From Clostridia bacterium (lineage in GTDB: Bacteria > Bacillota > Clostridia > CAKSNL01 > HGM11501), in assembly GCA_045123995.1 (NCBI GenBank), contig JBGVKY010000026.1:7428-71427 (forward strand): 64,000 nucleotides of DNA, in the 5' to 3' direction. The notes below the pieces were generated by a model. The model worked only from the letters and a program-made list of their open reading frames with translations, did no database searches and was not told the origin of the DNA. Within the stretch, counting starts at the first letter, position 1, and each line of letters opens with the position of its first letter. Below are positions 27,767 through 46,334 of this stretch, in pieces. A program made the translations under genes and the position numbers.

Positions 27767-29425
27767 ATGAAAAAACTACTTTGTATTATACTTTCATTTG
27801 TAATGGCGTTTGGAGTTATGAGTTCTATGGGAAAAGGAGCAGAGCTTTCCGGGACGGGAACAAAAGAAGACCCCTATTTAATTGAAGATGTAAATGACCT
27901 TTTTCTTTTAAGCCAGAATGTATATGATGGTGAAAGCTATAAGGGTAAATATTTTCTCCTTAAAGAGGATATTTCCTTAAATGAAACAGAAGATTTTAAT
28001 TTCTGGGGTATAAGAGCACCTCAGAATATATGGAAACCTATCGGTGGACCGAATTATGAATTTAGCGGTATTTTTGACGGTGGAGGCCATGAAATTTCAG
28101 GTATTTATGTTAATTATGAAAAAAACTTTGCAGGACTTTTCGGCTATGTTTATGATGGCGAAATTAGAAATTTGAAAATAACTAAAAGCTTTGTAAAGGG
28201 AAAAGACAATACTGGACTTCTTTCAGGCAGTCTGATAAATTCAAAAGTTTCAGGCGTTGAAGTATCGGGAATTGCATTGGGCGAAAACAATGTGGGTTCC
28301 CTTACAGGTAACTTATATAAAAGCTCTCTTTCTATGATAAAGAGTGATGCTGATATAGAGGGTAGCTATTATACCGGTGGAATAGCAGGTAAAACCTTTG
28401 ATTCCACAGTTGATTCAGTGGTTTTTAACGGCTATATAAAGGGAGAAAAGGCAGTCGGCGGAATCCTGGGAAACAGCGAAAAAACAGAAGTTAAGAATAC
28501 CTATGAAACTTCTTCTGTTATTGGAGATGAATTTGTCGGTGGAATTTCGGGGCATAATGATGAAGAAAGTAAAATTTTTGCATCCTATTCTCTCGGGGAT
28601 ATAAAAGGAGTTATGGCGGTTGGCGGAATTGCCGGCTTAAACTACGGAATTATCGAATCCTGCTATACAAAAAGTCGTGTAGAGGGCGAAGTGAGTGGTG
28701 CTGTTACAGGTATCAATTTTCCCCTTTCTGAGGAAGATTACAGAGAACAGGGCGAAATCATAAATGCATATTACGCCTCTGATAGGACGGAGAATGCGGT
28801 AGGCTACACCGAGGACACAGAGGAGCTTGATATAGTTGACTTAAAGGGTGCGAAATTAACTCAAAGCTATATTTCTTCTTTCATTTTCGAGGGTGAATAT
28901 ATTTCAGAAGAAGACAGATTGAAAAATCCACAGAATGTCTGGGTTTTCTCCGGAGAAAAAGGTCCCAAACTGTTTTTTGAAAATGAGCTTATATTTGAAA
29001 ACACGGAAGAAAGCCCGGGAGAACCCGGAGAAAAAATAGGGGAAATAGTATCTACGGATATAAGAGCATATATTAACGGAAGCGAAATTAAAGCCTATAA
29101 TATTGGAGGAAAAATGGCAATAGCCTTAAAGGATTTAAGGGAATTTGGTTTTACCGTATCGTTTGAAGATGAAAAACGAGAGGTCTGTGTAAGCTATGCC
29201 GGTGGAGAAATAAATTCTTCTTACGTTTACGAAGAGAACAATCTTCCCGTAGGAACGTATCTTAAAGATATACTGTCCACAGATATAAAGGCTTATATAA
29301 AAGGGAACGAGACGGAGTCTTTTAATGCAGACGGATATACACATGTATATTTCAGAAGTCTTTCTTCCTTTGGAGAAATTTCTTTTGATGAAAAAGAAAG
29401 ACGAGCGGAACTTTTAATTAAATAA
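27767..29425 (+). CDS. Secreted GLUG-repeat protein with a duplicated C-terminal module
   Basis: Signal peptide; GTGTKEDPYLI; repeated VGGIxG units; two STDI(R/K)AYI(N/K)G repeats at the C-terminus. Confidence 0.75.
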   Translation: MKKLLCIILSFVMAFGVMSSMGKGAELSGTGTKEDPYLIEDVNDLFLLSQNVYDGESYKGKYFLLKEDISLNETEDFNFWGIRAPQNIWKPIGGPNYEFSGIFDGGGHEISGIYVNYEKNFAGLFGYVYDGEIRNLKITKSFVKGKDNTGLLSGSLINSKVSGVEVSGIALGENNVGSLTGNLYKSSLSMIKSDADIEGSYYTGGIAGKTFDSTVDSVVFNGYIKGEKAVGGILGNSEKTEVKNTYETSSVIGDEFVGGISGHNDEESKIFASYSLGDIKGVMAVGGIAGLNYGIIESCYTKSRVEGEVSGAVTGINFPLSEEDYREQGEIINAYYASDRTENAVGYTEDTEELDIVDLKGAKLTQSYISSFIFEGEYISEEDRLKNPQNVWVFSGEKGPKLFFENELIFENTEESPGEPGEKIGEIVSTDIRAYINGSEIKAYNIGGKMAIALKDLREFGFTVSFEDEKREVCVSYAGGEINSSYVYEENNLPVGTYLKDILSTDIKAYIKGNETESFNADGYTHVYFRSLSSFGEISFDEKERRAELLIK

Positions 29426-29426
29426 T

Positions 29427-29617
29427 AAAAAGAACACCCGATTGGATGTTCTTTTTATGGCGGACTTAAGAGGGATTCGCTTTTCTGCGGAAAAGCCATC
29501 CGGTGGCTCTGACAGTCCACCGGACTGTCATTCACTACCACCGGTTCGAATCCTTCATCAAACTAAAAAAAGAACACCCGTCTGGATGTTCTTTTTTGGC
29601 GGACAGAGAGGGATTCG
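29427..29617 (-). repeat. tRNA-associated structured element with a ~52-bp imperfect direct repeat of the tRNA 3' end plus terminator
   Basis: 29427-29479 repeats 29567-29617; nested hairpins lie between the copies. Confidence 0.75.
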
Positions 29618-29688
29618 AACCCTCGAACGGGTATTAGCCGTTACACGATTTCCAGTCGTGCGCCTTAGACCAGCTCAGCCATCTGTCC
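29597..29688 (-). tRNA. tRNA-Ser (GGA)
   Basis: GGACAGATGGCTGAGCTGGTCTAAGGCGCACGACTGGAAATCGTG...GGGTTCGAATCCCTCTCTGTCCGCCA; long variable arm; encoded CCA; TTGACA-N17-TATAAT promoter at 29728-29700. Confidence 0.96.
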
Positions 29689-29754
29689 ACAACGAGATAA
29701 TTATAACTCATTAAAAGCTTTTTGTCAAGAGTTTTTTGAATAAAATACGGACAA

Positions 29755-29846: not shown

Positions 29847-31271
29847 ATGTCAAAGACAGTTAAGGATATAATAAACTTGATAAAAGAAAAAGACATAAAA
29901 ATGGTAGACTTTAAAATGGTGGATATAAACGGACAGTTTCGCCATGTAACAATTCCTGCAGGTAATTTTTCTGAAGAAACTATGAAAAACGGAATTGGTT
30001 TTGATGCTTCAAACTACGGCTATGCCATGGTAGAAAAAAGTGATATGGTCTTTATTCCTGACCCTGAAACTGCAATAATTGACCCTTTCTGCGAAATTCC
30101 GACTCTTTCCATGACGGGTAATGCCATGATAATTGACAATCCTGAAAACCGTCCTTTGGCACACTATCCCAGAAATATAGTTCTTGCGGCAGAAAAATAT
30201 ATGAAGGATTTGGGCATTGCCGACACCATGATGATTTTGCCTGAATTTGAGTTCTATCTTTTTGACAATGTCACATGGGAAGTATCTCCCCAGAAAATCG
30301 GTGTTTCATTAGATGCCAGACAGGCCCATTGGAACAGCGATTATGAGGGAAGAGGCGTAATTGTGGACAAGCAGAAAAACTACCACGTTGCAAAGCCCTT
30401 TGACGTTTCCTATGAAGCAAGAAGCGAAATGTGTATGCTCATCGAAGAAGCAGGAATCAAGCTTAATTACCATCATCCTGAGGTGGGCGCTGCAGGTCAG
30501 TTTGAAATCGAGCCCGCTCTTGGGAAAATGTCCGAAATGGCAGATGCTACCATGATGATAAAATATATCATTCATAATACGGCCTTAAAGTATGGTCTTT
30601 CCGCAACATTTATGCCTAAGCCTGTGGCAGGTGAGGCAGGAAACGGAATGCACGTTCACATGCTTTTATTAAAAGATGGTAAGCCTGTATTTTCAGATGA
30701 TAACGGCTATTCCAATTTAAGCCGTGAAGCTCATTATTTCATGGGAGGACTATTAAAGCATATTGCATCACTCTGTGCAATTACAAACCCCTCCACCAAT
30801 TCCTTTAAGAGATTGGTACCGGGCTTTGAAGCTCCTGTTACTGTGGGCTATGCCACATCCAACAGAAGTGCTGTTATAAGAATTCCTGCCTATGCAAAGA
30901 GTCCCGAATTAAGACGTTTTGAGCTTAGAAATCCCGATGCTACCTGCAATCCCTATTTCTGCTATGCTGCAATTTTGATGGCAGGTCTTGACGGTATAAA
31001 GAATAAAATCGACCCTGAAAAAGAAGGTTGGGGTCCATATGACTTTAATCTTTATAAATTGAGTGATGAAGAAAAGGCGAAGCTTTCTCATCTTCCTACA
31101 TCCCTTCACGAAGCTCTTGATGCTCTGGAAAAGGATTATGCCTATCTTCTAGAGGGTGGAGTATTCCCGGAAGAAATGATAAAATCATTCATTGCTAAAA
31201 AAAGGGAAGAGTGCAGAGAGATGGCTGCAATTCCTCATCCCGCAGAATTTTCCAAATACTATAATCTTTAA
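29847..31271 (+). CDS. glnA: Glutamine synthetase type I
   Basis: GFDAS, PEFEFYLF, ATFMPKP, GNGMHVH, KRLVPGFEAP, NRSAVIRIP. Confidence 0.95.
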   Translation: MSKTVKDIINLIKEKDIKMVDFKMVDINGQFRHVTIPAGNFSEETMKNGIGFDASNYGYAMVEKSDMVFIPDPETAIIDPFCEIPTLSMTGNAMIIDNPENRPLAHYPRNIVLAAEKYMKDLGIADTMMILPEFEFYLFDNVTWEVSPQKIGVSLDARQAHWNSDYEGRGVIVDKQKNYHVAKPFDVSYEARSEMCMLIEEAGIKLNYHHPEVGAAGQFEIEPALGKMSEMADATMMIKYIIHNTALKYGLSATFMPKPVAGEAGNGMHVHMLLLKDGKPVFSDDNGYSNLSREAHYFMGGLLKHIASLCAITNPSTNSFKRLVPGFEAPVTVGYATSNRSAVIRIPAYAKSPELRRFELRNPDATCNPYFCYAAILMAGLDGIKNKIDPEKEGWGPYDFNLYKLSDEEKAKLSHLPTSLHEALDALEKDYAYLLEGGVFPEEMIKSFIAKKREECREMAAIPHPAEFSKYYNL

Positions 31272-31387
31272 TACAAAAACAAAAGCTGTCGAAAGATAGC
31301 TTTTGTTTTTATTTGCAAAGCGTAATTTACAAAAAAAGCTTGACAAACGGTAAAAAAAAGAGTAAAGTATATAAAGATATGATAAAA

Positions 31388-31404
31388 AGCAACCAAAAGT
31401 TGCT
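31388..31404. promoter_or_regulatory. Palindromic candidate operator
   Basis: AGCAAC-CAAAA-GTTGCT between TTGACA-N17-TAAAGT (31340-31368) and TTAATT-N17-TATAAT (31411-31439). Confidence 0.55.
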
Positions 31405-31482
31405 GTGAAATTAATTTTAGTTGGTCGAAAAAGTATAATAAATCAGATATCATATAATATAATTAAAAAAGGGTGATTTTTT

Positions 31483-33096
31483 ATGACAATCGGCGAAAAA
31501 ATAGCATATCTCAGAAGTAATTTGGATATTTCTCAGGAACAGCTTGCTGAAAAGATCAATGTATCACGCCAGTCTGTTTCGAAGTGGGAAATGGATCAGG
31601 CTCTTCCACAGATTGATAAGGTTCTTCAGCTTTGCGAACTTTTCAAAGTTACGGCAGATGAGCTTTTGCAGGATTCTGTGGAAATTAAGAAGCAGAGCCG
31701 CAAAAAGAATAAGTATTTCGGAACCGACGGATTCAGAGGGGAAGCTAACGTAAACTTAACTTCTGACCAGGCTTATAAAGTGGGAAGGTTTTTAGGCTGG
31801 TATTTTTCTTCCAAACTTTCAGGATGTGAGAAAACAGGCTACAGACCCCGTATAGTTATAGGTAAGGATACCCGTCGTTCAAGCTATATGCTGGAATATT
31901 CCATTGTTGCAGGCATCACCGCTTCGGGTGCTGATGCTTATATGCTTCATGTTACAACAACACCCAGCGTTTCTTATGTAACACGACAGGATGAATTCGA
32001 CTGTGGTATAATGATTACAGCATCTCATAATCCTTTCTACGATAACGGAATAAAGATTATAAACCGTTACGGAGAAAAGCTTGATGATGACACAACTGCT
32101 TTGATTGAAGCTTACATAGATGGTGATATGTCAGCTCTTGGTGTGGAGATGCCTGATTTACCTCTTGCTAAGAGAGAGCATATCGGTTGTATTGTTGACT
32201 ATGTGTCAGGAAGAAACCGTTATGTAGGATATCTTATCTCCCTGGCATCTAATTCTTATAAGAATTTAAGAATAGGTCTTGATTGTGCAAATGGTGCTTC
32301 ATGGATGATTGCGAAGGCTGTATTCGGAGCACTGGGTGCACAGATGGTTGTTGTTGGCGACGAGCCTGACGGTCTTAACGTAAATAATGGTTGCGGATCT
32401 ACACATATTGAAAACCTTTGTAAGGTAGTTAAGGAACAACATCTTGATTTAGGTTTTGCCTTTGACGGGGATTGTGACAGATGTATAGCTGTTGACGGTA
32501 ATGGAAAGGAAGTTGACGGCGATGCTATGCTTTATATCTTGGGCAAGAGGTTAAAGGGTAGAGGAATGCTCAACCAGAACACTGTGGTTGCAACGGTAAT
32601 GTCGAACTCAGGCTTTGTAAAGAGCCTTGAAGAAGCGGGTATGAACTGTGCACAGACAAAGGTCGGAGACCGTTTTGTATATGAATGTATGCAGGAAAAT
32701 GATTTCGGTCTTGGCGGTGAGCAGTCAGGTCATATTATTTTGAAGAAATATGCAACAACAGGCGATGGTCTTTTAACCGCAATCATGATTCTTGAAGAAA
32801 TCTGCGATTCCAAGATGACTCTTGCTGAGTTGGCAGCACCTGTTAAGCTTTATCCCCAGTATACCAGAAATATACGCGTAAAGGATAAGGCTGCGGTTAT
32901 GAGTGACGAGGCTGTATTAAACGAAGTAAAGGAAGTTGAAAAGCTTATAAATAAAAAGGGTAGAGCTCTTTTGCGAGAAAGCGGAACAGAGCCTGTTATC
33001 AGAGTTATGATTGAAAGCGAAACAAGCGAAAAATGCGTGGAATACGCAGACAGAATAGCAAGTGTTATTCTTAAAGGAGGCCACGGCGTTGAGTGA
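31483..33096 (+). CDS. glmM: Phosphoglucosamine mutase with an N-terminal XRE/Cro-C1 helix-turn-helix fusion
   Basis: aa 1-65 SQEQLAEKINVSRQSVSKWE; then KYFGTDGFRG, ITASHNP, DGDCDR, GGEQSGH, RESGTEP. Confidence 0.92.
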   Translation: MTIGEKIAYLRSNLDISQEQLAEKINVSRQSVSKWEMDQALPQIDKVLQLCELFKVTADELLQDSVEIKKQSRKKNKYFGTDGFRGEANVNLTSDQAYKVGRFLGWYFSSKLSGCEKTGYRPRIVIGKDTRRSSYMLEYSIVAGITASGADAYMLHVTTTPSVSYVTRQDEFDCGIMITASHNPFYDNGIKIINRYGEKLDDDTTALIEAYIDGDMSALGVEMPDLPLAKREHIGCIVDYVSGRNRYVGYLISLASNSYKNLRIGLDCANGASWMIAKAVFGALGAQMVVVGDEPDGLNVNNGCGSTHIENLCKVVKEQHLDLGFAFDGDCDRCIAVDGNGKEVDGDAMLYILGKRLKGRGMLNQNTVVATVMSNSGFVKSLEEAGMNCAQTKVGDRFVYECMQENDFGLGGEQSGHIILKKYATTGDGLLTAIMILEEICDSKMTLAELAAPVKLYPQYTRNIRVKDKAAVMSDEAVLNEVKEVEKLINKKGRALLRESGTEPVIRVMIESETSEKCVEYADRIASVILKGGHGVE

Positions 33097-33751
33097 TAAG
33101 TTAAAGACAAAAGAATTGTTCGAGTGTAAAAATCCTTATCTTAAAGACCTTTTTGAAACCTCGGAATATCCCTGGGATATTCTTCCCAGAATTAAGGAAT
33201 ACATAAATAATTTAATAAAAAAGGGAATTCCCGGCTATACATTGCTTAAAGAGGGTGTGCTTGTTGGCGAAAATGTTAAAATTTACGATACAGCAACAAT
33301 CGAAGCGCCTGCAGTAATCGGTTCGGGTACAGAAGTAAGACCCGGCGCATTTTTAAGAGGAAATGTAATAATCGGCGAAAACTGTGTTATCGGAAATTCC
33401 AGCGAATTCAAAAATTGTGTTCTCCTGGATAAGGTTCAGGCTCCTCACTATAATTATGTTGGAGATTCGGTTTTGGGAAATCATGCACATATGGGTGCTG
33501 GTGCAGTTTGCTCTAATTTGAAGTCCGACCAGAAGGCAGTTGTAATTCACGGCGAGAAGGACTATGACACAAATCTCCGTAAAGTTGGCGGAATTTTGGC
33601 AGATAATGCAGATATCGGATGCGGATGTGTGTTAAATCCCGGTACAGTTGTGGGTAAAAATACATCAGTTTATCCCTTGACTCCTTTAAGAGGAGTATAT
33701 CCTGAAAATTCAATAGTAAAGAGTCAGAAAGTTTTTGTAGAAAGAAAGTGA
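33089..33751 (+). CDS. GlmU-related hexapeptide-repeat acetyltransferase lacking the uridyltransferase domain
   Basis: EVRPGAFLRG, IGNSSEFKN, PHYNYVGDS, GAGAVCSN; TTG start 33089 after AAGGAGG. Confidence 0.8.
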   Translation: MSDKLKTKELFECKNPYLKDLFETSEYPWDILPRIKEYINNLIKKGIPGYTLLKEGVLVGENVKIYDTATIEAPAVIGSGTEVRPGAFLRGNVIIGENCVIGNSSEFKNCVLLDKVQAPHYNYVGDSVLGNHAHMGAGAVCSNLKSDQKAVVIHGEKDYDTNLRKVGGILADNADIGCGCVLNPGTVVGKNTSVYPLTPLRGVYPENSIVKSQKVFVERK

Positions 33752-33759
33752 GGATAATT

Positions 33760-34470
33760 ATGAATTACATAGTAACAGAAAGTTATGAAGAGTTAAGCCG
33801 TAAAGCGGCAAATATCATTGGCGCAGTGGTTATAAACAAGCCAGATGCAGTTTTGGGTCTTGCTACAGGCTCATCACCTCTCGGAACATATGGCAATCTT
33901 GCTAAAATGTATAAAGATGGTGATTTGGATTTTTCTAAGGTAACTTCCGTAAACCTTGATGAATACGAAGGTCTTGATGTTACTAATGACCAGAGCTACC
34001 GTTATTTCATGAATGAAAATCTTTTCTCCAAGATAAATATTGATATAAAGAAGACTTTTGTTCCCAACGGATGCGCAAAGGATTTAGCTAAAGAAGGCGA
34101 AGAGTATGATGCCCTTATAAAGTCCTTGGGAGGAATAGACATTCAGCTTTTAGGAATAGGTCTTGATGGTCATATCGGCTTTAATGAACCTGATGATGTA
34201 TTTGTAGGACCTACTCATGCAGTAGATTTAGATCCCTCTACGATAGAAGCAAACGCAAGATTTTTTGCATCCATCGATGATGTTCCCAAGAGAGCAATTA
34301 CAATGGGCATGATGTCTATTATGCAGGCTAAGAAGATTCTCTTAATTGCCAATGGTGCAAAGAAGAAGGAAATATGTGAAAAGGCATTCTTCGGACCCAT
34401 CACACCGAAAGTACCTGCATCAATTCTTCAGCTTCATCCTGATGTAACAGTAATTTTCAGTGAGAACTAA
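33760..34470 (+). CDS. nagB: Glucosamine-6-phosphate deaminase
   Basis: LGLATGSSP, NLDEY, GIGLDGHIGFNEP, PASILQLH. Confidence 0.95.
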   Translation: MNYIVTESYEELSRKAANIIGAVVINKPDAVLGLATGSSPLGTYGNLAKMYKDGDLDFSKVTSVNLDEYEGLDVTNDQSYRYFMNENLFSKINIDIKKTFVPNGCAKDLAKEGEEYDALIKSLGGIDIQLLGIGLDGHIGFNEPDDVFVGPTHAVDLDPSTIEANARFFASIDDVPKRAITMGMMSIMQAKKILLIANGAKKKEICEKAFFGPITPKVPASILQLHPDVTVIFSEN

Positions 34471-34506: not shown

Positions 34507-35343
34507 TTAGTATTTTTTAGAAAGTAAGGAACGTTCGGTTTCCTTGATGGAGTGCAACGCCTTTTCGGAATGACTGAGTATAATATAATGGTAGATAACG
34601 TCAATAATCGCAAGCTGAACAATTCTGGAGTTTAAGGCTAAGATACTGTACTCTGTTTCATCTGCCGAAGTAAATAAAGGAATGTCAGTATATTTAAGGA
34701 GAGGAGATTTTCCTTTATTGGTTATAGCTATTGTGGTTGCCCCGTGTTCCTTTGCGAGTTTTACAGCATCAACAATATCTTTTGAAGATCCGGAATGTGA
34801 AATAGCAATAACCACGTCGTTATCAGACAGGTGGGAAGAGGCAATAACTTGCATATGGTTGTCAGAGTAAGCCACGGCGTTAAGTCCGGCTCTTAAAAAC
34901 TTATGACTGGCATCCATAGCAAGAGATGCAGAGTTGCCGAGACCGAATATCACGATTTTACTGGCTTCTGTTATTTTTTTACAAGCTTTTTCAAGATAAT
35001 CTGGGTGTAATGATTTTTTTGTCTTTTCCAACGAAAGATATATATCATTGCATATTTTTTCATATATTTCGGAAGGCTTATCATCAGAGGATATATTTGA
35101 ATTTATAGGAGAGGTTCCGCCTTCTGCTGCAAGAGAAATTTTAAGTTCCTGATATCCGCTTAATCCAAGACGTTTGGAAAATCTTACTATTGTGGCTTCG
35201 GAGCATTTGCATTGTTCGGCAAGCTCTACTATTGATAAAGAAATGATTTTGCCGGGATTTTCAAAAATCCAGTCGGCTATTTGTTTTTCTGCTTTGCCCA
35301 TTTCGGTGTAATGCATTTTAATGTTGAGAGATATTTTATCCAT
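34507..35343 (-). CDS. RpiR/MurR-family regulator (HTH plus SIS)
   Basis: SIVELA..SEATIVRFSKRLG..GYQELK, GLGNS, ISHSG. Confidence 0.93.
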   Translation of the reverse strand: MDKISLNIKMHYTEMGKAEKQIADWIFENPGKIISLSIVELAEQCKCSEATIVRFSKRLGLSGYQELKISLAAEGGTSPINSNISSDDKPSEIYEKICNDIYLSLEKTKKSLHPDYLEKACKKITEASKIVIFGLGNSASLAMDASHKFLRAGLNAVAYSDNHMQVIASSHLSDNDVVIAISHSGSSKDIVDAVKLAKEHGATTIAITNKGKSPLLKYTDIPLFTSADETEYSILALNSRIVQLAIIDVIYHYIILSHSEKALHSIKETERSLLSKKY

Positions 35344-43509: not shown

Positions 43510-44985
43510 ATGAGATATTTATTGGGTATTGATTTTGGAGGAGGGGCATCAAAAGCTACCCTTTTAAGGGAAGACGGTCATATTGAAGCCACTCATACAA
43601 CAGAATATAAAACATCATATCCGGCTCCGGGCTACGCGGAACAAAACCCAGATGACTGGTTTGATGCCACAGTGGAAAATATAAAAGGTGTAATAGAAAA
43701 AAGTCAAATATCACCTTGTGAAATTCTGGCAGTTTCTCTGGATGCAGCCACTCATACTGCGGTTATTATGGATGAGGATTTTAATGTAATCCGACCCTCT
43801 ATATACTGGACAGATACAAGAAGTACGAAAGAGGTGGAATTCCTTAAAGAAAATTATGCGGATTTAATTGAGAAAGAAGTTTTACATAAGCCTGATACTA
43901 TATGGAGCTTACCTGAGCTTTTGTGGATAAAGAATAACGAGCCTGATAATTGGGCGAGGGTAAAGAAAATTCTTTTTGCAAAGGATTATGTAAGACATCA
44001 GCTTACCGGTGACTATGTAACTGACTACATAGAGGCAGAGGGAAGCATGATGTTTGATATAAATAAAATGCAGTGGAGCGATACTCTTTGTGGCATTTTG
44101 GATATAAAACCTGATTTGTTGCCCGAAATAGTTAAACCCACAGATATCGTGGGAACTGTAACTAAAAAGGCGGCAAAACTCACAGGACTTTCAGAGGGAA
44201 CGAAAGTTCTTTGCGGAACAACTGATACTGTAATGGAAGTATTTGCCTCGGGTGCAGTTAAACAGGGGCAGATGACCTTAAAGCTTGCTACCGCAGGCAG
44301 AATCTGCGTTGTAACTAAAAAAGCATATCCAGATAAAAACCTTATCAACTATTCGCATATTATAGATGGATTATTCTATCCTGGAACGGCAACAAAATCA
44401 TGTGCTTCTTCTTTGAGATGGTTCAGAGATACCTTCGGAGAAGATTATAAAGAGCTTGACGATAAAGCATCCAAGGTTCCGGTGGGAGCCGAGGGTCTTG
44501 TGTTTCATCCCTATCTTAATGGAGAACTTACTCCTTATGCAAACCCCAATTTATGTGCTGATTTTGTGGGCATAAGAGCATCTCATACCAAAGCACATTT
44601 TGTAAGAGCCGTTCTTGAAGGAGTGGCAATGAGTATGTTGGACTGCAAGGAAGCGTTGGAGAATTTTAACATTCCTCACGATGACTCTGCCGCTATTATC
44701 GGAGGAGGAGGAAAAAGTCCCTTGTGGAGACAAATGATATCTGATGCTCTGGGAATCAGGCTTGTGGAAATGAAAAATGCAGATTCCTCCTTTGGAAGTG
44801 CTATGCTTGCGGGTGTAGCTACGGGAATTTTTGAAACACCCGAAAAAGCTGTGGAAATATGCAATGAAGTGGTTTCGGAAACCATGCCGGATATGGAGAA
44901 TAATTCAAAATACAGAGAATTATTCAAAAAATACAAGGCGATTCAGAAGGCTTTGGAACCCATCTATAACGGTGAAAATCTATGA
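43510..44985 (+). CDS. FGGY-family carbohydrate kinase (xylulokinase-like)
   Basis: LGIDFG, EQNPDDW, WTDTRS, KDYVR, PYLNGE, RAVLEG, GGGGKS. Confidence 0.9.
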   Translation: MRYLLGIDFGGGASKATLLREDGHIEATHTTEYKTSYPAPGYAEQNPDDWFDATVENIKGVIEKSQISPCEILAVSLDAATHTAVIMDEDFNVIRPSIYWTDTRSTKEVEFLKENYADLIEKEVLHKPDTIWSLPELLWIKNNEPDNWARVKKILFAKDYVRHQLTGDYVTDYIEAEGSMMFDINKMQWSDTLCGILDIKPDLLPEIVKPTDIVGTVTKKAAKLTGLSEGTKVLCGTTDTVMEVFASGAVKQGQMTLKLATAGRICVVTKKAYPDKNLINYSHIIDGLFYPGTATKSCASSLRWFRDTFGEDYKELDDKASKVPVGAEGLVFHPYLNGELTPYANPNLCADFVGIRASHTKAHFVRAVLEGVAMSMLDCKEALENFNIPHDDSAAIIGGGGKSPLWRQMISDALGIRLVEMKNADSSFGSAMLAGVATGIFETPEKAVEICNEVVSETMPDMENNSKYRELFKKYKAIQKALEPIYNGENL

Positions 44986-46334
44986 AGATTTTAGTTTGTG
45001 TGAAGGTTGTAAACGGGGAACTGAATCCTTTTGATGAATCTGCTCTGGAGTGTGCATTAAGACTCTCTTCTGATGTAACGGTAATAACTATGGGCCCTCT
45101 AAGCAATGAGAAAGTACTTAAGGGGCTGACAAGGCTGGGAACTAAGGTTATACTTGTAAGCGATAACTTATATGCAGGCTCCGATACGCTGGCTACATCA
45201 TACGTCTTGTCAACTGCTATAAAAAGAATGGATTATGACCTGATTTTATGCGGAAGACAAAGCATAGACGGAGATACAGCACAGGTTGGCCCCATGCTTT
45301 CGGAAAAACTAGGAATTTCTCTTATTACCAATGCAATGGACGTTAAAAGTCTGGAAGATTCAGTTGTTGTATCTACCAGAACGGAAACTAAAAAAGTAAA
45401 AACTCCTATTTTGATAACAATGGAGAGGTCTTTTGTTTTAAGATTTCCCAGTATTTTTTCGAAGCAGGGAGATGTTATGGTAATAAGTAATGAAACCTTA
45501 CTCTGCAATAAAGAAAAGTGCGGTCTTTCAGGTTCTCCAACAAGGGTTATTAAAACTTTTGAAAATGAGATCGGGAAAAGAAAATGCAAATTCATATCAA
45601 TGGAAGAAATTCCTTCGTTGATTGAGGAGCTTAAAAATAAGGAAAAGACAGAAGAAAAAAGTGAAACTCCCGGAACTAAGTTGAAAAAGGTTTGGGCGAT
45701 AGGACCCGAAGTGTTGGAAAAAGCGGAAAAGGTTGCCGAAGAAGTGATTTTGATAGACAAACTTTCTCCTGAAGAGATATTCGAAAAAGCCCTGAAAGAA
45801 AAGCCTGAAGTTATATTATGGAACGCCGACTTATGGGGCAGAAAAAATGCACCTCTGGTAGCATCAAAGCTTAATACAGGTCTTTGTGCAGACTGTACTG
45901 CTCTTGAAACCGATGGGGAAAATCTTATTATGGTAAGACCTGCCCGTGGTGGAAATGTAACCGCAAAGATACTCTGTAATACAAAGCCTGTTATGGCAAC
46001 CGTAAGAACGAAGGCAGCAAGTTCTGAAATTATAGTTTCAGGAGGTAGGGGTGTTGCAGATAAAACAGATAAACTTAAGGAGTTTGCAAAAACTCTTGGA
46101 GGAGAAGTGGGAGCATCTAGAGGCCTTGTTGACTTGAATAAAATACCTTACGAAGCCCAGATAGGTCTTACGGGAAAAACAGTAAGCCCCAAAATATATG
46201 TGGCCGTAGGCATATCCGGTGCGGTGCATCATACTTGCGCCATAGAGGGAAGCGATACGGTTATAGCTATAAACCCTGATAAAGATGCAAGAATTTTTGA
46301 ATATGCAGATTATGGAGTTTTATCTGAGTTTTAA
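44982..46334 (+). CDS. Fused electron-transfer flavoprotein beta-alpha
   Basis: beta motifs NPFDESALE, GSDTLATS, GRQSIDGDTAQVG, GLSGSPT; alpha motifs GLCADC, SGGRG, QIGLTGKTV, GISGAVHH, in one ORF. Confidence 0.88.
   Translation: MKILVCVKVVNGELNPFDESALECALRLSSDVTVITMGPLSNEKVLKGLTRLGTKVILVSDNLYAGSDTLATSYVLSTAIKRMDYDLILCGRQSIDGDTAQVGPMLSEKLGISLITNAMDVKSLEDSVVVSTRTETKKVKTPILITMERSFVLRFPSIFSKQGDVMVISNETLLCNKEKCGLSGSPTRVIKTFENEIGKRKCKFISMEEIPSLIEELKNKEKTEEKSETPGTKLKKVWAIGPEVLEKAEKVAEEVILIDKLSPEEIFEKALKEKPEVILWNADLWGRKNAPLVASKLNTGLCADCTALETDGENLIMVRPARGGNVTAKILCNTKPVMATVRTKAASSEIIVSGGRGVADKTDKLKEFAKTLGGEVGASRGLVDLNKIPYEAQIGLTGKTVSPKIYVAVGISGAVHHTCAIEGSDTVIAINPDKDARIFEYADYGVLSEF

Follow-up and report, generated by a model that had tools for sequence, protein, structure and literature searches.

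Trigger enzymes that carry a fused DNA-binding domain include BirA, which is both biotin ligase and repressor, NadR, and PutA. Here we describe a gene that appears to encode a further protein of this kind, located at 31483..33096 on the plus strand of a 64,000-nucleotide (nt) stretch of DNA from a Clostridia bacterium (GenBank assembly GCA_045123995.1, contig JBGVKY010000026.1, positions 7,428 to 71,427 of the forward strand), which we refer to as the window. Its product, HTH-GlmM, consists of a helix-turn-helix (HTH) domain of the XRE/Cro-C1 type followed by the phosphoglucosamine mutase GlmM. As in BirA, NadR, and PutA, a metabolic enzyme and a DNA-binding domain are found in one polypeptide, and the predicted operator is situated at genes of the enzyme's own pathway. 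The differences lie in the enzyme, in the XRE/Cro-C1 type of the domain, and in the apparent regulon, which comprises a single operator region. Ligand control defines BirA, NadR, and PutA; the likeness of HTH-GlmM to them is drawn from sequence alone. GlmM performs the committed step toward UDP-N-acetylglucosamine (UDP-GlcNAc), and hence toward peptidoglycan. The controls known for this pathway are exerted on GlmS, via a ribozyme, small RNAs, or GlmR, or involve GlmM as a protein partner of the cyclic di-AMP (c-di-AMP) cyclase.

BzdR of Azoarcus provides a second comparison. This regulator carries an XRE-type HTH at its N terminus, joined through a linker to an effector domain that resembles shikimate kinase; according to the abstract of the article describing it, this domain has lost catalysis and serves only for benzoyl-CoA binding (PMC3602430). 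The article argues that regulators of this sort originate from enzymes that acquire a domain for DNA binding, and it reports a "missing link" stage that was built artificially (PMC3602430). The order of XRE HTH, linker, and C-terminal domain with an enzyme fold is shared by HTH-GlmM and BzdR. Unlike BzdR as described there, HTH-GlmM has intact catalytic motifs and is the only GlmM of its genome, and its C-terminal part is a motif-complete GlmM and not a domain resembling shikimate kinase. HTH-GlmM would correspond to the "missing link" stage, occurring in nature.

Among proteins of solved structure, canonical GlmMs (7ojr, 9g69, 3pdk, and 6gyz) align end to end with residues 76-530 of HTH-GlmM (E = 3e-122 to 2e-113); these chains begin at query residue 75-77, and none has an HTH head. 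The best solved matches to the head are DNA-binding repressors, P22 C2 (1adr, 2r1j, and 3jxb) and ICEBs1 ImmR (7t8i), at E values of 9e-7 to 1e-4, and the head has the five-helix XRE fold of repressors from lambdoid phages and integrative and conjugative elements. Such repressors bind dyad operators in which a strong site neighbors a weak one. The repressors dimerize by a C-terminal oligomerization or peptidase-type domain, whereas in HTH-GlmM the enzyme would do so. A description of an HTH-GlmM fusion was not found in full-text literature searches, from which subscription journals were mostly absent. An enzyme with a fused DNA-binding domain is a known kind of protein; what is different here is the combination of a motif-complete, sole-copy GlmM, a single-site apparent regulon, and a shared, apparently portable cassette.

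The open reading frame (ORF) encodes 537 amino acids (aa) with zero internal stops. The XRE/Cro-C1 HTH domain occupies residues 1-62 (31483..31668), with the recognition helix VSRQSVSKWE at residues 27-36, and is matched by the Pfam family HTH_3 (PF01381) at residues 7-61 with 49.1 bits (E = 5.8e-13; cut-off, 23). A 14-residue linker (residues 63-76, QDSVEIKKQSRKKN; 31669..31710), variable among relatives and modeled without helix or strand, leads to GlmM domains I-IV (residues 77-537 plus the stop codon; 31711..33096). All four PGM_PMM domains are present in order, PF02878 at residues 77-214, PF02879 at 254-341, PF02880 at 345-453, and PF00408 at 463-526. The NCBIfam equivalog for glmM, TIGR01455, scores 504.5 bits over residues 79-529 against a curated cut-off of 447.55, and 504.9 bits in the search of the whole genome. 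The codon for the catalytic Ser181 lies at 32023-32025. The junction reads ...VEIKKQSRKKNKYFGTDGFRG and, in a longer reading, ...LLQDSVEIKKQSRKKNKYFGTDGFRG; its nucleotides contain no Met codon and no in-frame ATG, GTG, or TTG. The initial annotation had proposed an XRE domain joined in frame to a GlmM with intact catalytic motifs, with no stop or Met at the junction, and both proposals are borne out, the former by Pfam, NCBIfam, and motif alignment and the latter by the ORF and the nucleotide reading.

The junction is not an artifact of assembly. In runs of two other studies, contigs extend across 31670-31720, the stretch for which read mapping had been suggested as a check, by 31 letters or more in either direction and show no indel there (X2 record 2, 31378-32414; X3 record 9, 31200-31906; X6 record 18, 31612-32130), and a misassembly is rejected. 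Where these contigs cover the dyad discussed below, they differ from the window at 31359, 31373, and 31406, and the dyad arms are unchanged. The genome that contains the window is 97% complete, with 1,833,866 bp in 28 contigs, and the fused protein is the sole GlmM above the cut-off in it. The second glmM that the initial annotation had asked about is likewise rejected, as the next match, a member of a different PGM family, scores 96.8 bits and so falls short of the cut-off. None of the 28 other genomes carrying the fusion has an unfused GlmM above the cut-off; one of them has two fused copies, and one has an extra PGM-family protein at 210.7 bits, below the cut-off. Two full-length HTH-GlmM genes, in open frames of 578 and 553 aa (G319:C13:46664-48256 and G319:C24:8165-9757), were seen together with glmS in G319, a genome with about 1% contamination.

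The fusion is widespread. With residues 1-140 as the scored stretch, a database search yielded 7,995 proteins (E ≤ 0.001); the best 120 of these all carry PF01381 and at least PGM_PMM_I, with 76-100% identity over residues 1-140, and their source names, where given, are just "phosphoglucosamine mutase." The order to which the window belongs consists of one family of 14 genomes, 5 of which have the fusion, all in the window's genus (5 of 12 genomes of the genus). Of 400 genomes sampled evenly across the class, 30 matched, and in 29 of them, from 12 families, the match covers residues 1-140 in one open frame of 534-578 aa; a singleton fusion is thereby rejected. A scan of species-representative genomes with the HTH only gave 596 relatives; among the 80 best of these, 49 are fusions to GlmM. 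These 49 are all in metagenome-assembled genomes, mostly labeled Clostridia, Acutalibacteraceae, Oscillospiraceae, Christensenellaceae, or Lachnospiraceae, with a few Bacilli, and many come from ruminant and other animal guts. The 29 loci of the class sample and the 49 of this second set, with one duplicate (L073 = L047) dropped, make up the 77 distinct fused loci used below.

A quick FastTree tree of 120 GlmM cores (77 fused and 43 unfused) with Shimodaira-Hasegawa-like supports placed all the fused genes in one clade with a support of 99, the sister of which is an unfused glmM (L057). The clade also contains one unfused protein on a long branch, P0121, a database GlmM of 460 aa that starts MGCADHKYFGTDG. 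The fusion is thus common and confined to one clade, and a single origin followed by patchy spread would be the simplest reading of its distribution. The closest unfused GlmMs among the best 150 matches in a library of 1.84 billion proteins are 56-59% identical. That library holds representatives at 50% identity, and the HTH is covered by none of the best 150 matches; the fused proteins have probably been clustered there under an unfused head, so that this search does not serve as a count of the fusion.

Conservation along the fused protein was expressed as mean pairwise identity over the 77 fused proteins. The HTH (residues 1-62) scores 0.69 and the GlmM core (residues 77-537) 0.73, compared with 0.22 for the linker (residues 63-76), and the recognition helix (residues 27-37), at 0.91, is the best-conserved part of the head. 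In 18 diverse fused proteins, S28, R29, Q30, S31, S33, K34, W35, and E36 are invariant. By these figures the HTH head is under strong constraint and the linker is not, and a decaying HTH is rejected, as the head is conserved about as well as the enzyme. The linker varies from 14 to 30 residues in length and from -4 to +5 in net charge; the basic linker noted in the initial annotation is accordingly a property of this lineage and not of the family as a whole.

The enzyme portion is also complete. Residues A180, S181, H182, and N183; D328, G329, D330, D332, and R333; E413, S415, and H417; and R498, S500, E503, and R507 are fully or almost fully conserved across 56 GlmMs, both fused and unfused. 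In GlmM, the motif TASHNP is the catalytic phospho-Ser loop, DGDxDR the metal loop, GEQSGH the sugar loop, and RxSGTEP the phosphate loop; these were found in 73, 77, 76, and 74 of the 77 fused proteins, respectively. At the level of its sequence, HTH-GlmM therefore combines a catalytically competent-looking enzyme and a DNA-binding domain in a single chain. An internal start that would yield free GlmM is ruled out, since the junction has no start codon and none of the 77 fused relatives has a Met within 6 residues 5' of YFGTDG.

The control region of the gene is bounded on its 5' side by the intrinsic terminator of the upstream glnA (TIGR00653 at 507.9 bits), a plus-strand inverted repeat at 31275..31310 with 16-nt arms that are 94% complementary, followed by a T run. 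Downstream of it lie a promoter-like sequence P1 (TTGACA-17-TAAAGT; 31340..31368, plus strand; 10 of 12 consensus matches), a perfect dyad GCAAC-N5-GTTGC at 31389..31403, which we refer to as the predicted operator O1 and which an extra pair at 31388/31404 extends to AGCAAC-N5-GTTGCT, and a second promoter-like sequence P2 (TCGAAA-17-TATCAT; 31425..31453, plus strand), which with 9 of 12 matches is weak here. A probable ribosome-binding site, AGGGTG, is located 7 nt 5' of the ATG (31470..31475, plus strand). The dyad had been described as lying between one promoter and the weak -35 of a second, and this placement is confirmed: at 31388-31404 it begins 20 nt past the -10 of P1 and ends 20 nt ahead of P2. 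Considered in the window alone, the dyad is not significant, being 1 of 14 short inverted repeats in 241 nt and with at least one match in 12 of 100 shuffles, and its significance therefore comes from comparative data.

The class sample contributed 29 fused loci; in their upstream 300 nt, a perfect dyad occurs in 25 and one that matches at 9 of 10 positions in the remaining 4, at 71-153 nt before the start codon. The second set, of 49 fused loci, has 36 perfect dyads, 11 at 9/10, and 2 at 8/10. By comparison, the best match at 7 unfused glmM loci, drawn from the window's family and the class sample, is 6-7 of 10, with none above 7/10. The background, estimated from 888,393 flanking positions of the same loci, contains 12 sites of at least 9/10 and no perfect site, or 0.004 per 300 nt. 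The dyad at 9/10 or better is thus present at 75 of the 77 distinct fused loci and at none of the 7 unfused glmM loci; when checked for co-conservation, it goes with the HTH, which is a strong, if indirect, sign that the recognition helix binds this dyad specifically. In the window's own genome the perfect dyad occurs once, upstream of the operon containing glmM, a left-handed beta-helix (LbH) acetyltransferase gene, and nagB; for the whole genome, base frequencies give an estimate of about 0.9 perfect sites by chance. No wider regulon was seen in this genome, in which the one perfect dyad and 30 sites with one mismatch are about what base composition predicts; the placement of these 30 with respect to genes was not checked. 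The SRQSVSKWE helix is found in no other protein of the genome.

Variation within the dyad bears on the molecule in which it is read. The 5-nt center varies freely, while the arms are invariant apart from changes that are all one-sided, pair-breaking, and uncompensated, which fits a DNA site read by a protein and not an RNA stem. That the dyad instead forms a hairpin in RNA, whether in the leader of the P1 transcript or as a minus-strand terminator, is the least probable of the explanations that we considered, and we regard it as highly improbable. It would account for the terminator scan, which flags the dyad on the minus strand (7 pairs, including 3 G-C pairs, with a T run after them), and P1 would indeed transcribe the dyad. 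However, there is no minus-strand gene that needs termination at this position, the dyad is upstream of a conserved promoter, P2, in most relatives, and Rfam gives no match in the region at the gathering threshold and none at the dyad even at a permissive threshold. The four permissive matches are all under their gathering scores, and all are on the glnA terminator.

The dyad also accompanies this HTH when the fused domain is not GlmM. Of the best 80 HTH relatives, 31 are not GlmM fusions, and 23 of these 31 have a dyad of at least 9/10 in their own upstream 300 nt, often in the form GCAAC-N5-GTTGA; the same dyad at other fusions of the same HTH subtype independently ties this type of helix to this dyad. 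A Pfam scan of 14 of the 31 identified a lipase-like Lip_C domain in 2, a glyoxalase domain in 1, and only the HTH in 11, some of which have weak, sub-threshold matches to membrane-protein-like families. These non-GlmM fusions of the SRQSVSKWE subtype come from other genomes (L102-L137; for example, L107:7001-8602, L109:3632-5221, and L120:7001-7594). From the sequences, the head and the operator look like a portable, self-targeting regulator cassette whose parts travel together whatever domain is fused.

When 75 upstream regions of fused loci were anchored on O1, the consensus was GCAACyt..rGTTGC.aaAaa.tcaaa...aagtTggttg..a, then 12 unconserved positions, then tttg.tattat. With offsets counted from the first base of O1, a second dyad (at least 7/10), O2, begins at offset 22-24 in 47 of 72 regions; any other window of three offsets accounts for at most 2 of 72. 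O1 and O2 are two helical turns apart, and O2 abuts the -35 element of P2, as it ends at offset 36 and the TTGNNN hexamer begins at offset 37. P2, in the form TTGNNN-(16-18)-TGnTAnnnT, is found in 39 of the 75 regions, with a 17-bp spacer in 34 of the 39, and where present it is of high quality, the -35 matching at 4-5 of 6 positions in 32 of 39 and the -10 at 5-6 of 6 in 32 of 39. If transcription from P2 is taken to start about 7 nt after the -10, the center of O1 falls at about -65 and that of O2 at about -43. P1-like sites occur at 31 of the 75 loci, compared with 14.7 expected from shuffles, and one lies 19-21 nt upstream of O1 in all 5 fused genomes of the genus (L003-L007). In the window, O2 (31410..31424) is degenerate at 5/10, with only the right half-site AGTTGG (31419-31424) kept. 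Because P2 is weak here as well, the model with two operators is based chiefly on relatives.

An AlphaFold2 model of HTH-GlmM (mean predicted local distance difference test score [pLDDT], 92.5; predicted template modeling score, 0.83) has a five-helix head, an unstructured linker, and a canonical GlmM. The helices of the head are at residues 3-13, 18-25, 29-36, 44-54, and 58-62, with block pLDDT values of 82-92, compared with 64-77 for the linker block. Two copies of residues 1-460 were modeled as a dimer with an interaction prediction score from aligned errors (ipSAE) of 0.76, against 0.00 for the best of 3 controls. This passes a mark that 20 of 30 proteins solved as pairs reached, compared with 1 of 23 of those solved as single chains. 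At least 97% of contacts were common to the three runs, with partner pLDDT values of at least 89. The interface is symmetric, lies in domain I (residues 87-98, 132-147, 185-186, 228-237, and 298), and begins about 10 residues past the fusion point. The pass may just reflect likeness to solved GlmM dimers.

Taken together, these data make it likely that HTH-GlmM is a bifunctional protein, a housekeeping phosphoglucosamine mutase with a DNA-binding head, whose occupancy of the operator sets transcription of its own operon. The GlmM core would dimerize via domain I and thereby supply the dimerization that lambdoid repressors take from their C-terminal domains, and the two XRE HTHs would hang near the two-fold axis on 14-residue linkers. 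So paired, they could read the O1 dyad GCAAC-N5-GTTGC, with its half-sites 10 bp apart. In most relatives, a second dimer could load onto the weaker O2, two helical turns downstream, the end of which directly adjoins the -35 of a strong promoter with an extended -10. In this window, O1 is at about +14 to +28 from the expected start of P1 and would act mainly as a block on the P1 transcript. The operon of glmM, the glucosamine-1-phosphate (GlcN-1-P) acetyltransferase-like gene, and nagB would then be transcribed according to the occupancy of O1, together with that of O2 in genomes that have it. Autoregulation of its own operon, as had been proposed for this protein from the start, is well supported by inference, the dyad being co-conserved with the HTH and present once in the genome. 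Repression, that is, negative feedback on enzyme dose, seems to us the more probable sign of regulation than activation, since O1 follows P1 and the promoters come close to consensus.

Several observations weigh against this explanation in whole or in part. The position of P0121 within the fused clade indicates either that the head is dispensable in at least one lineage or that the gene call is truncated. The degenerate O2 and weak P2 of the window, where P1 is the better promoter, speak against the two-operator form. In the dimer model no HTH residue is in confident contact, and the model holds no information on packing of HTH with HTH or of HTH with GlmM. As to repression, -65 and -43 are about the positions at which lambda-type repressors activate. 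Finally, the binding partner of an XRE HTH may be a protein and not DNA, as is the case for RodZ.

The last two points each belong to an explanation of their own. HTH-GlmM could be an autoactivator or a dual switch that, bound at O1 (about -65) and O2 (about -43), activates P2 by contact with RNA polymerase, like lambda CI at PRM, and blocks read-through from P1. The geometry found in relatives would suit this, as O2 ends where the -35 starts and O1 is 22-24 bp further upstream, which are the positions of class II and class I activators, and the pairing of a strong distal with a weak proximal site resembles lambda OR1-OR2 and C-protein operators. We nevertheless consider it rather unlikely: P2, where present, is near consensus with a TG extension and mostly a 17-bp spacer, and such promoters seldom need an activator, while the window itself, as stated above, combines a weak P2 and a degenerate O2 with a better P1. 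The other explanation is that the HTH does not bind DNA at all and is a protein-interaction or localization domain, the dyad being bound by another factor or having another role. The XRE HTH of RodZ binds MreB, and in Firmicutes GlmM is a known partner of the c-di-AMP cyclase CdaA, of whose DAC domain the genome has one gene. This explanation is nonetheless very improbable, as every occurrence of the dyad has this HTH subtype encoded immediately downstream of it, irrespective of the domain fused to the HTH, and as the recognition helix is unique in the genome and the most conserved part of the head.

If HTH-GlmM regulates its own operon, it could do so with or without sensing a ligand. Modulation of its DNA binding by glucosamine-6-phosphate (GlcN-6-P), by GlcN-1-P, or by the state of phospho-Ser181 is speculative, and simple dose-dependent autoregulation fits the data equally as well as the reading as a trigger enzyme. 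In its strict form, as a sub-case of the autoregulation favored above, the dose explanation denies ligand control: a generic self-repressing cassette would buffer the amount of GlmM, and nothing would be sensed. The occurrence of the same HTH subtype and dyad with unrelated C-terminal domains is in its favor, as the cassette would then work independently of the fused partner, and a linker that is unconserved in sequence, length, and charge argues against precise allosteric coupling. On the other hand, the fusion point is about 2 residues before the YFGTDGFRG strand, which is at the active site in this enzyme family, and, given the modeled distance of about 10 residues from there to the dimer interface, changes in catalytic state could reach the HTH; moreover, the fused enzyme-regulators BirA, NadR, and PutA are all ligand controlled. 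The strict form is a realistic alternative to which we give somewhat less than even weight.

The genes downstream of HTH-glmM appear to belong to the same pathway. The second gene of the operon (33062..33751, plus strand) shares 35 nt with the 3' end of glmM, with which it is probably cotranscribed; it encodes a stand-alone LbH acetyltransferase of 229 aa (Hexapep and Hexapep_GlmU; Arch_glmU positions 216-389 of 393), which resembles just the C-terminal half of GlmU-type enzymes. The third (33748..34470, plus strand) is nagB, encoding a glucosamine-6-phosphate deaminase/isomerase (TIGR00502 at 255.2 bits; cut-off, 236.9). An LbH homolog is directly downstream in 41 of the 49 fused loci of the second set, and 2 of the other 8 have less than 150 nt of downstream sequence; a nagB homolog is downstream in 18 of the 49. 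At L143, the unfused sister gene also has an LbH acetyltransferase gene downstream, so that this pairing predates the fusion.

In the 97%-complete genome of the window, no GlmS scored over the cut-off, the best match (39.2 bits) being the SIS domain of an RpiR regulator, and neither a glmS ribozyme nor a canonical bifunctional GlmU was found. As there is no GlmS, GlcN-6-P would have to come from uptake or from NagB running toward synthesis, and the amino-sugar route appears to run via nagB, HTH-glmM, and the stand-alone GlmU-like acetyltransferase. A 400-aa frame at C23:3815-4552 may supply a nucleotidyltransferase. GlmS is over the cut-off in 10 of 29 fused genomes compared with 10 of 14 unfused controls, which is a trend only, as the genomes are related and the controls were picked by hand; these were taken from the class sample, leaving out G002, G006, G010, G011, G013, G018, and G025 (59-87% complete) and including G181 (77% complete). 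The sole DAC-domain (CdaA-like c-di-AMP cyclase) gene is at G000:C26:206005-206358, outside the window and about 165 kb from glmM; it does not form part of the cdaA-cdaR-glmM arrangement that is usual in Firmicutes.

Other features of the window provide context. A convergent gene for a MurR/RpiR-family regulator (HTH_6 plus SIS) lies at 34507..35343 on the minus strand, next to the operon, and is given as a neighbor without being assigned to the system. Residues 10-220 of the product of a single 450-aa ORF at 44982-46331 (plus strand) match the beta subunit of electron-transfer flavoprotein, and residues 348-448 match the C terminus of the alpha subunit; the ORF possibly encodes a fused EtfB-EtfA. 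Upstream of glnA, a protein of 552 aa (27767-29425, plus strand) has a signal-peptide-like N terminus and many short G-rich repeats (e.g., VGGI.G), with no NCBIfam match at an E value of 1e-10. Between its ORF and glnA is a tRNA-Ser gene with the anticodon GGA (29597-29688, minus strand), of which the ORF at 29442-29714 (plus strand) is merely a translation.

These observations raise the possibility, which we put forward tentatively, that HTH-GlmM is a sensor of pathway flux in gut Clostridia, many of which lack GlmS and the glmS ribozyme (19 of 29 fused genomes). The occupancy of the active site or the phospho-Ser state would pass via the short tether to the heads and so set the operon for de novo amino-sugar synthesis (nagB, glmM, and the GlcN-1-P acetyltransferase), and the head with its operator would be a portable cassette that has made several unrelated enzymes self-regulating. 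Its presence on lipase-like, glyoxalase-type, and other proteins suggests a general route by which enzymes become self-regulating. A GlmM that reads DNA, if true, would be a new control point in a large and mostly uncultured part of the animal gut microbiota.

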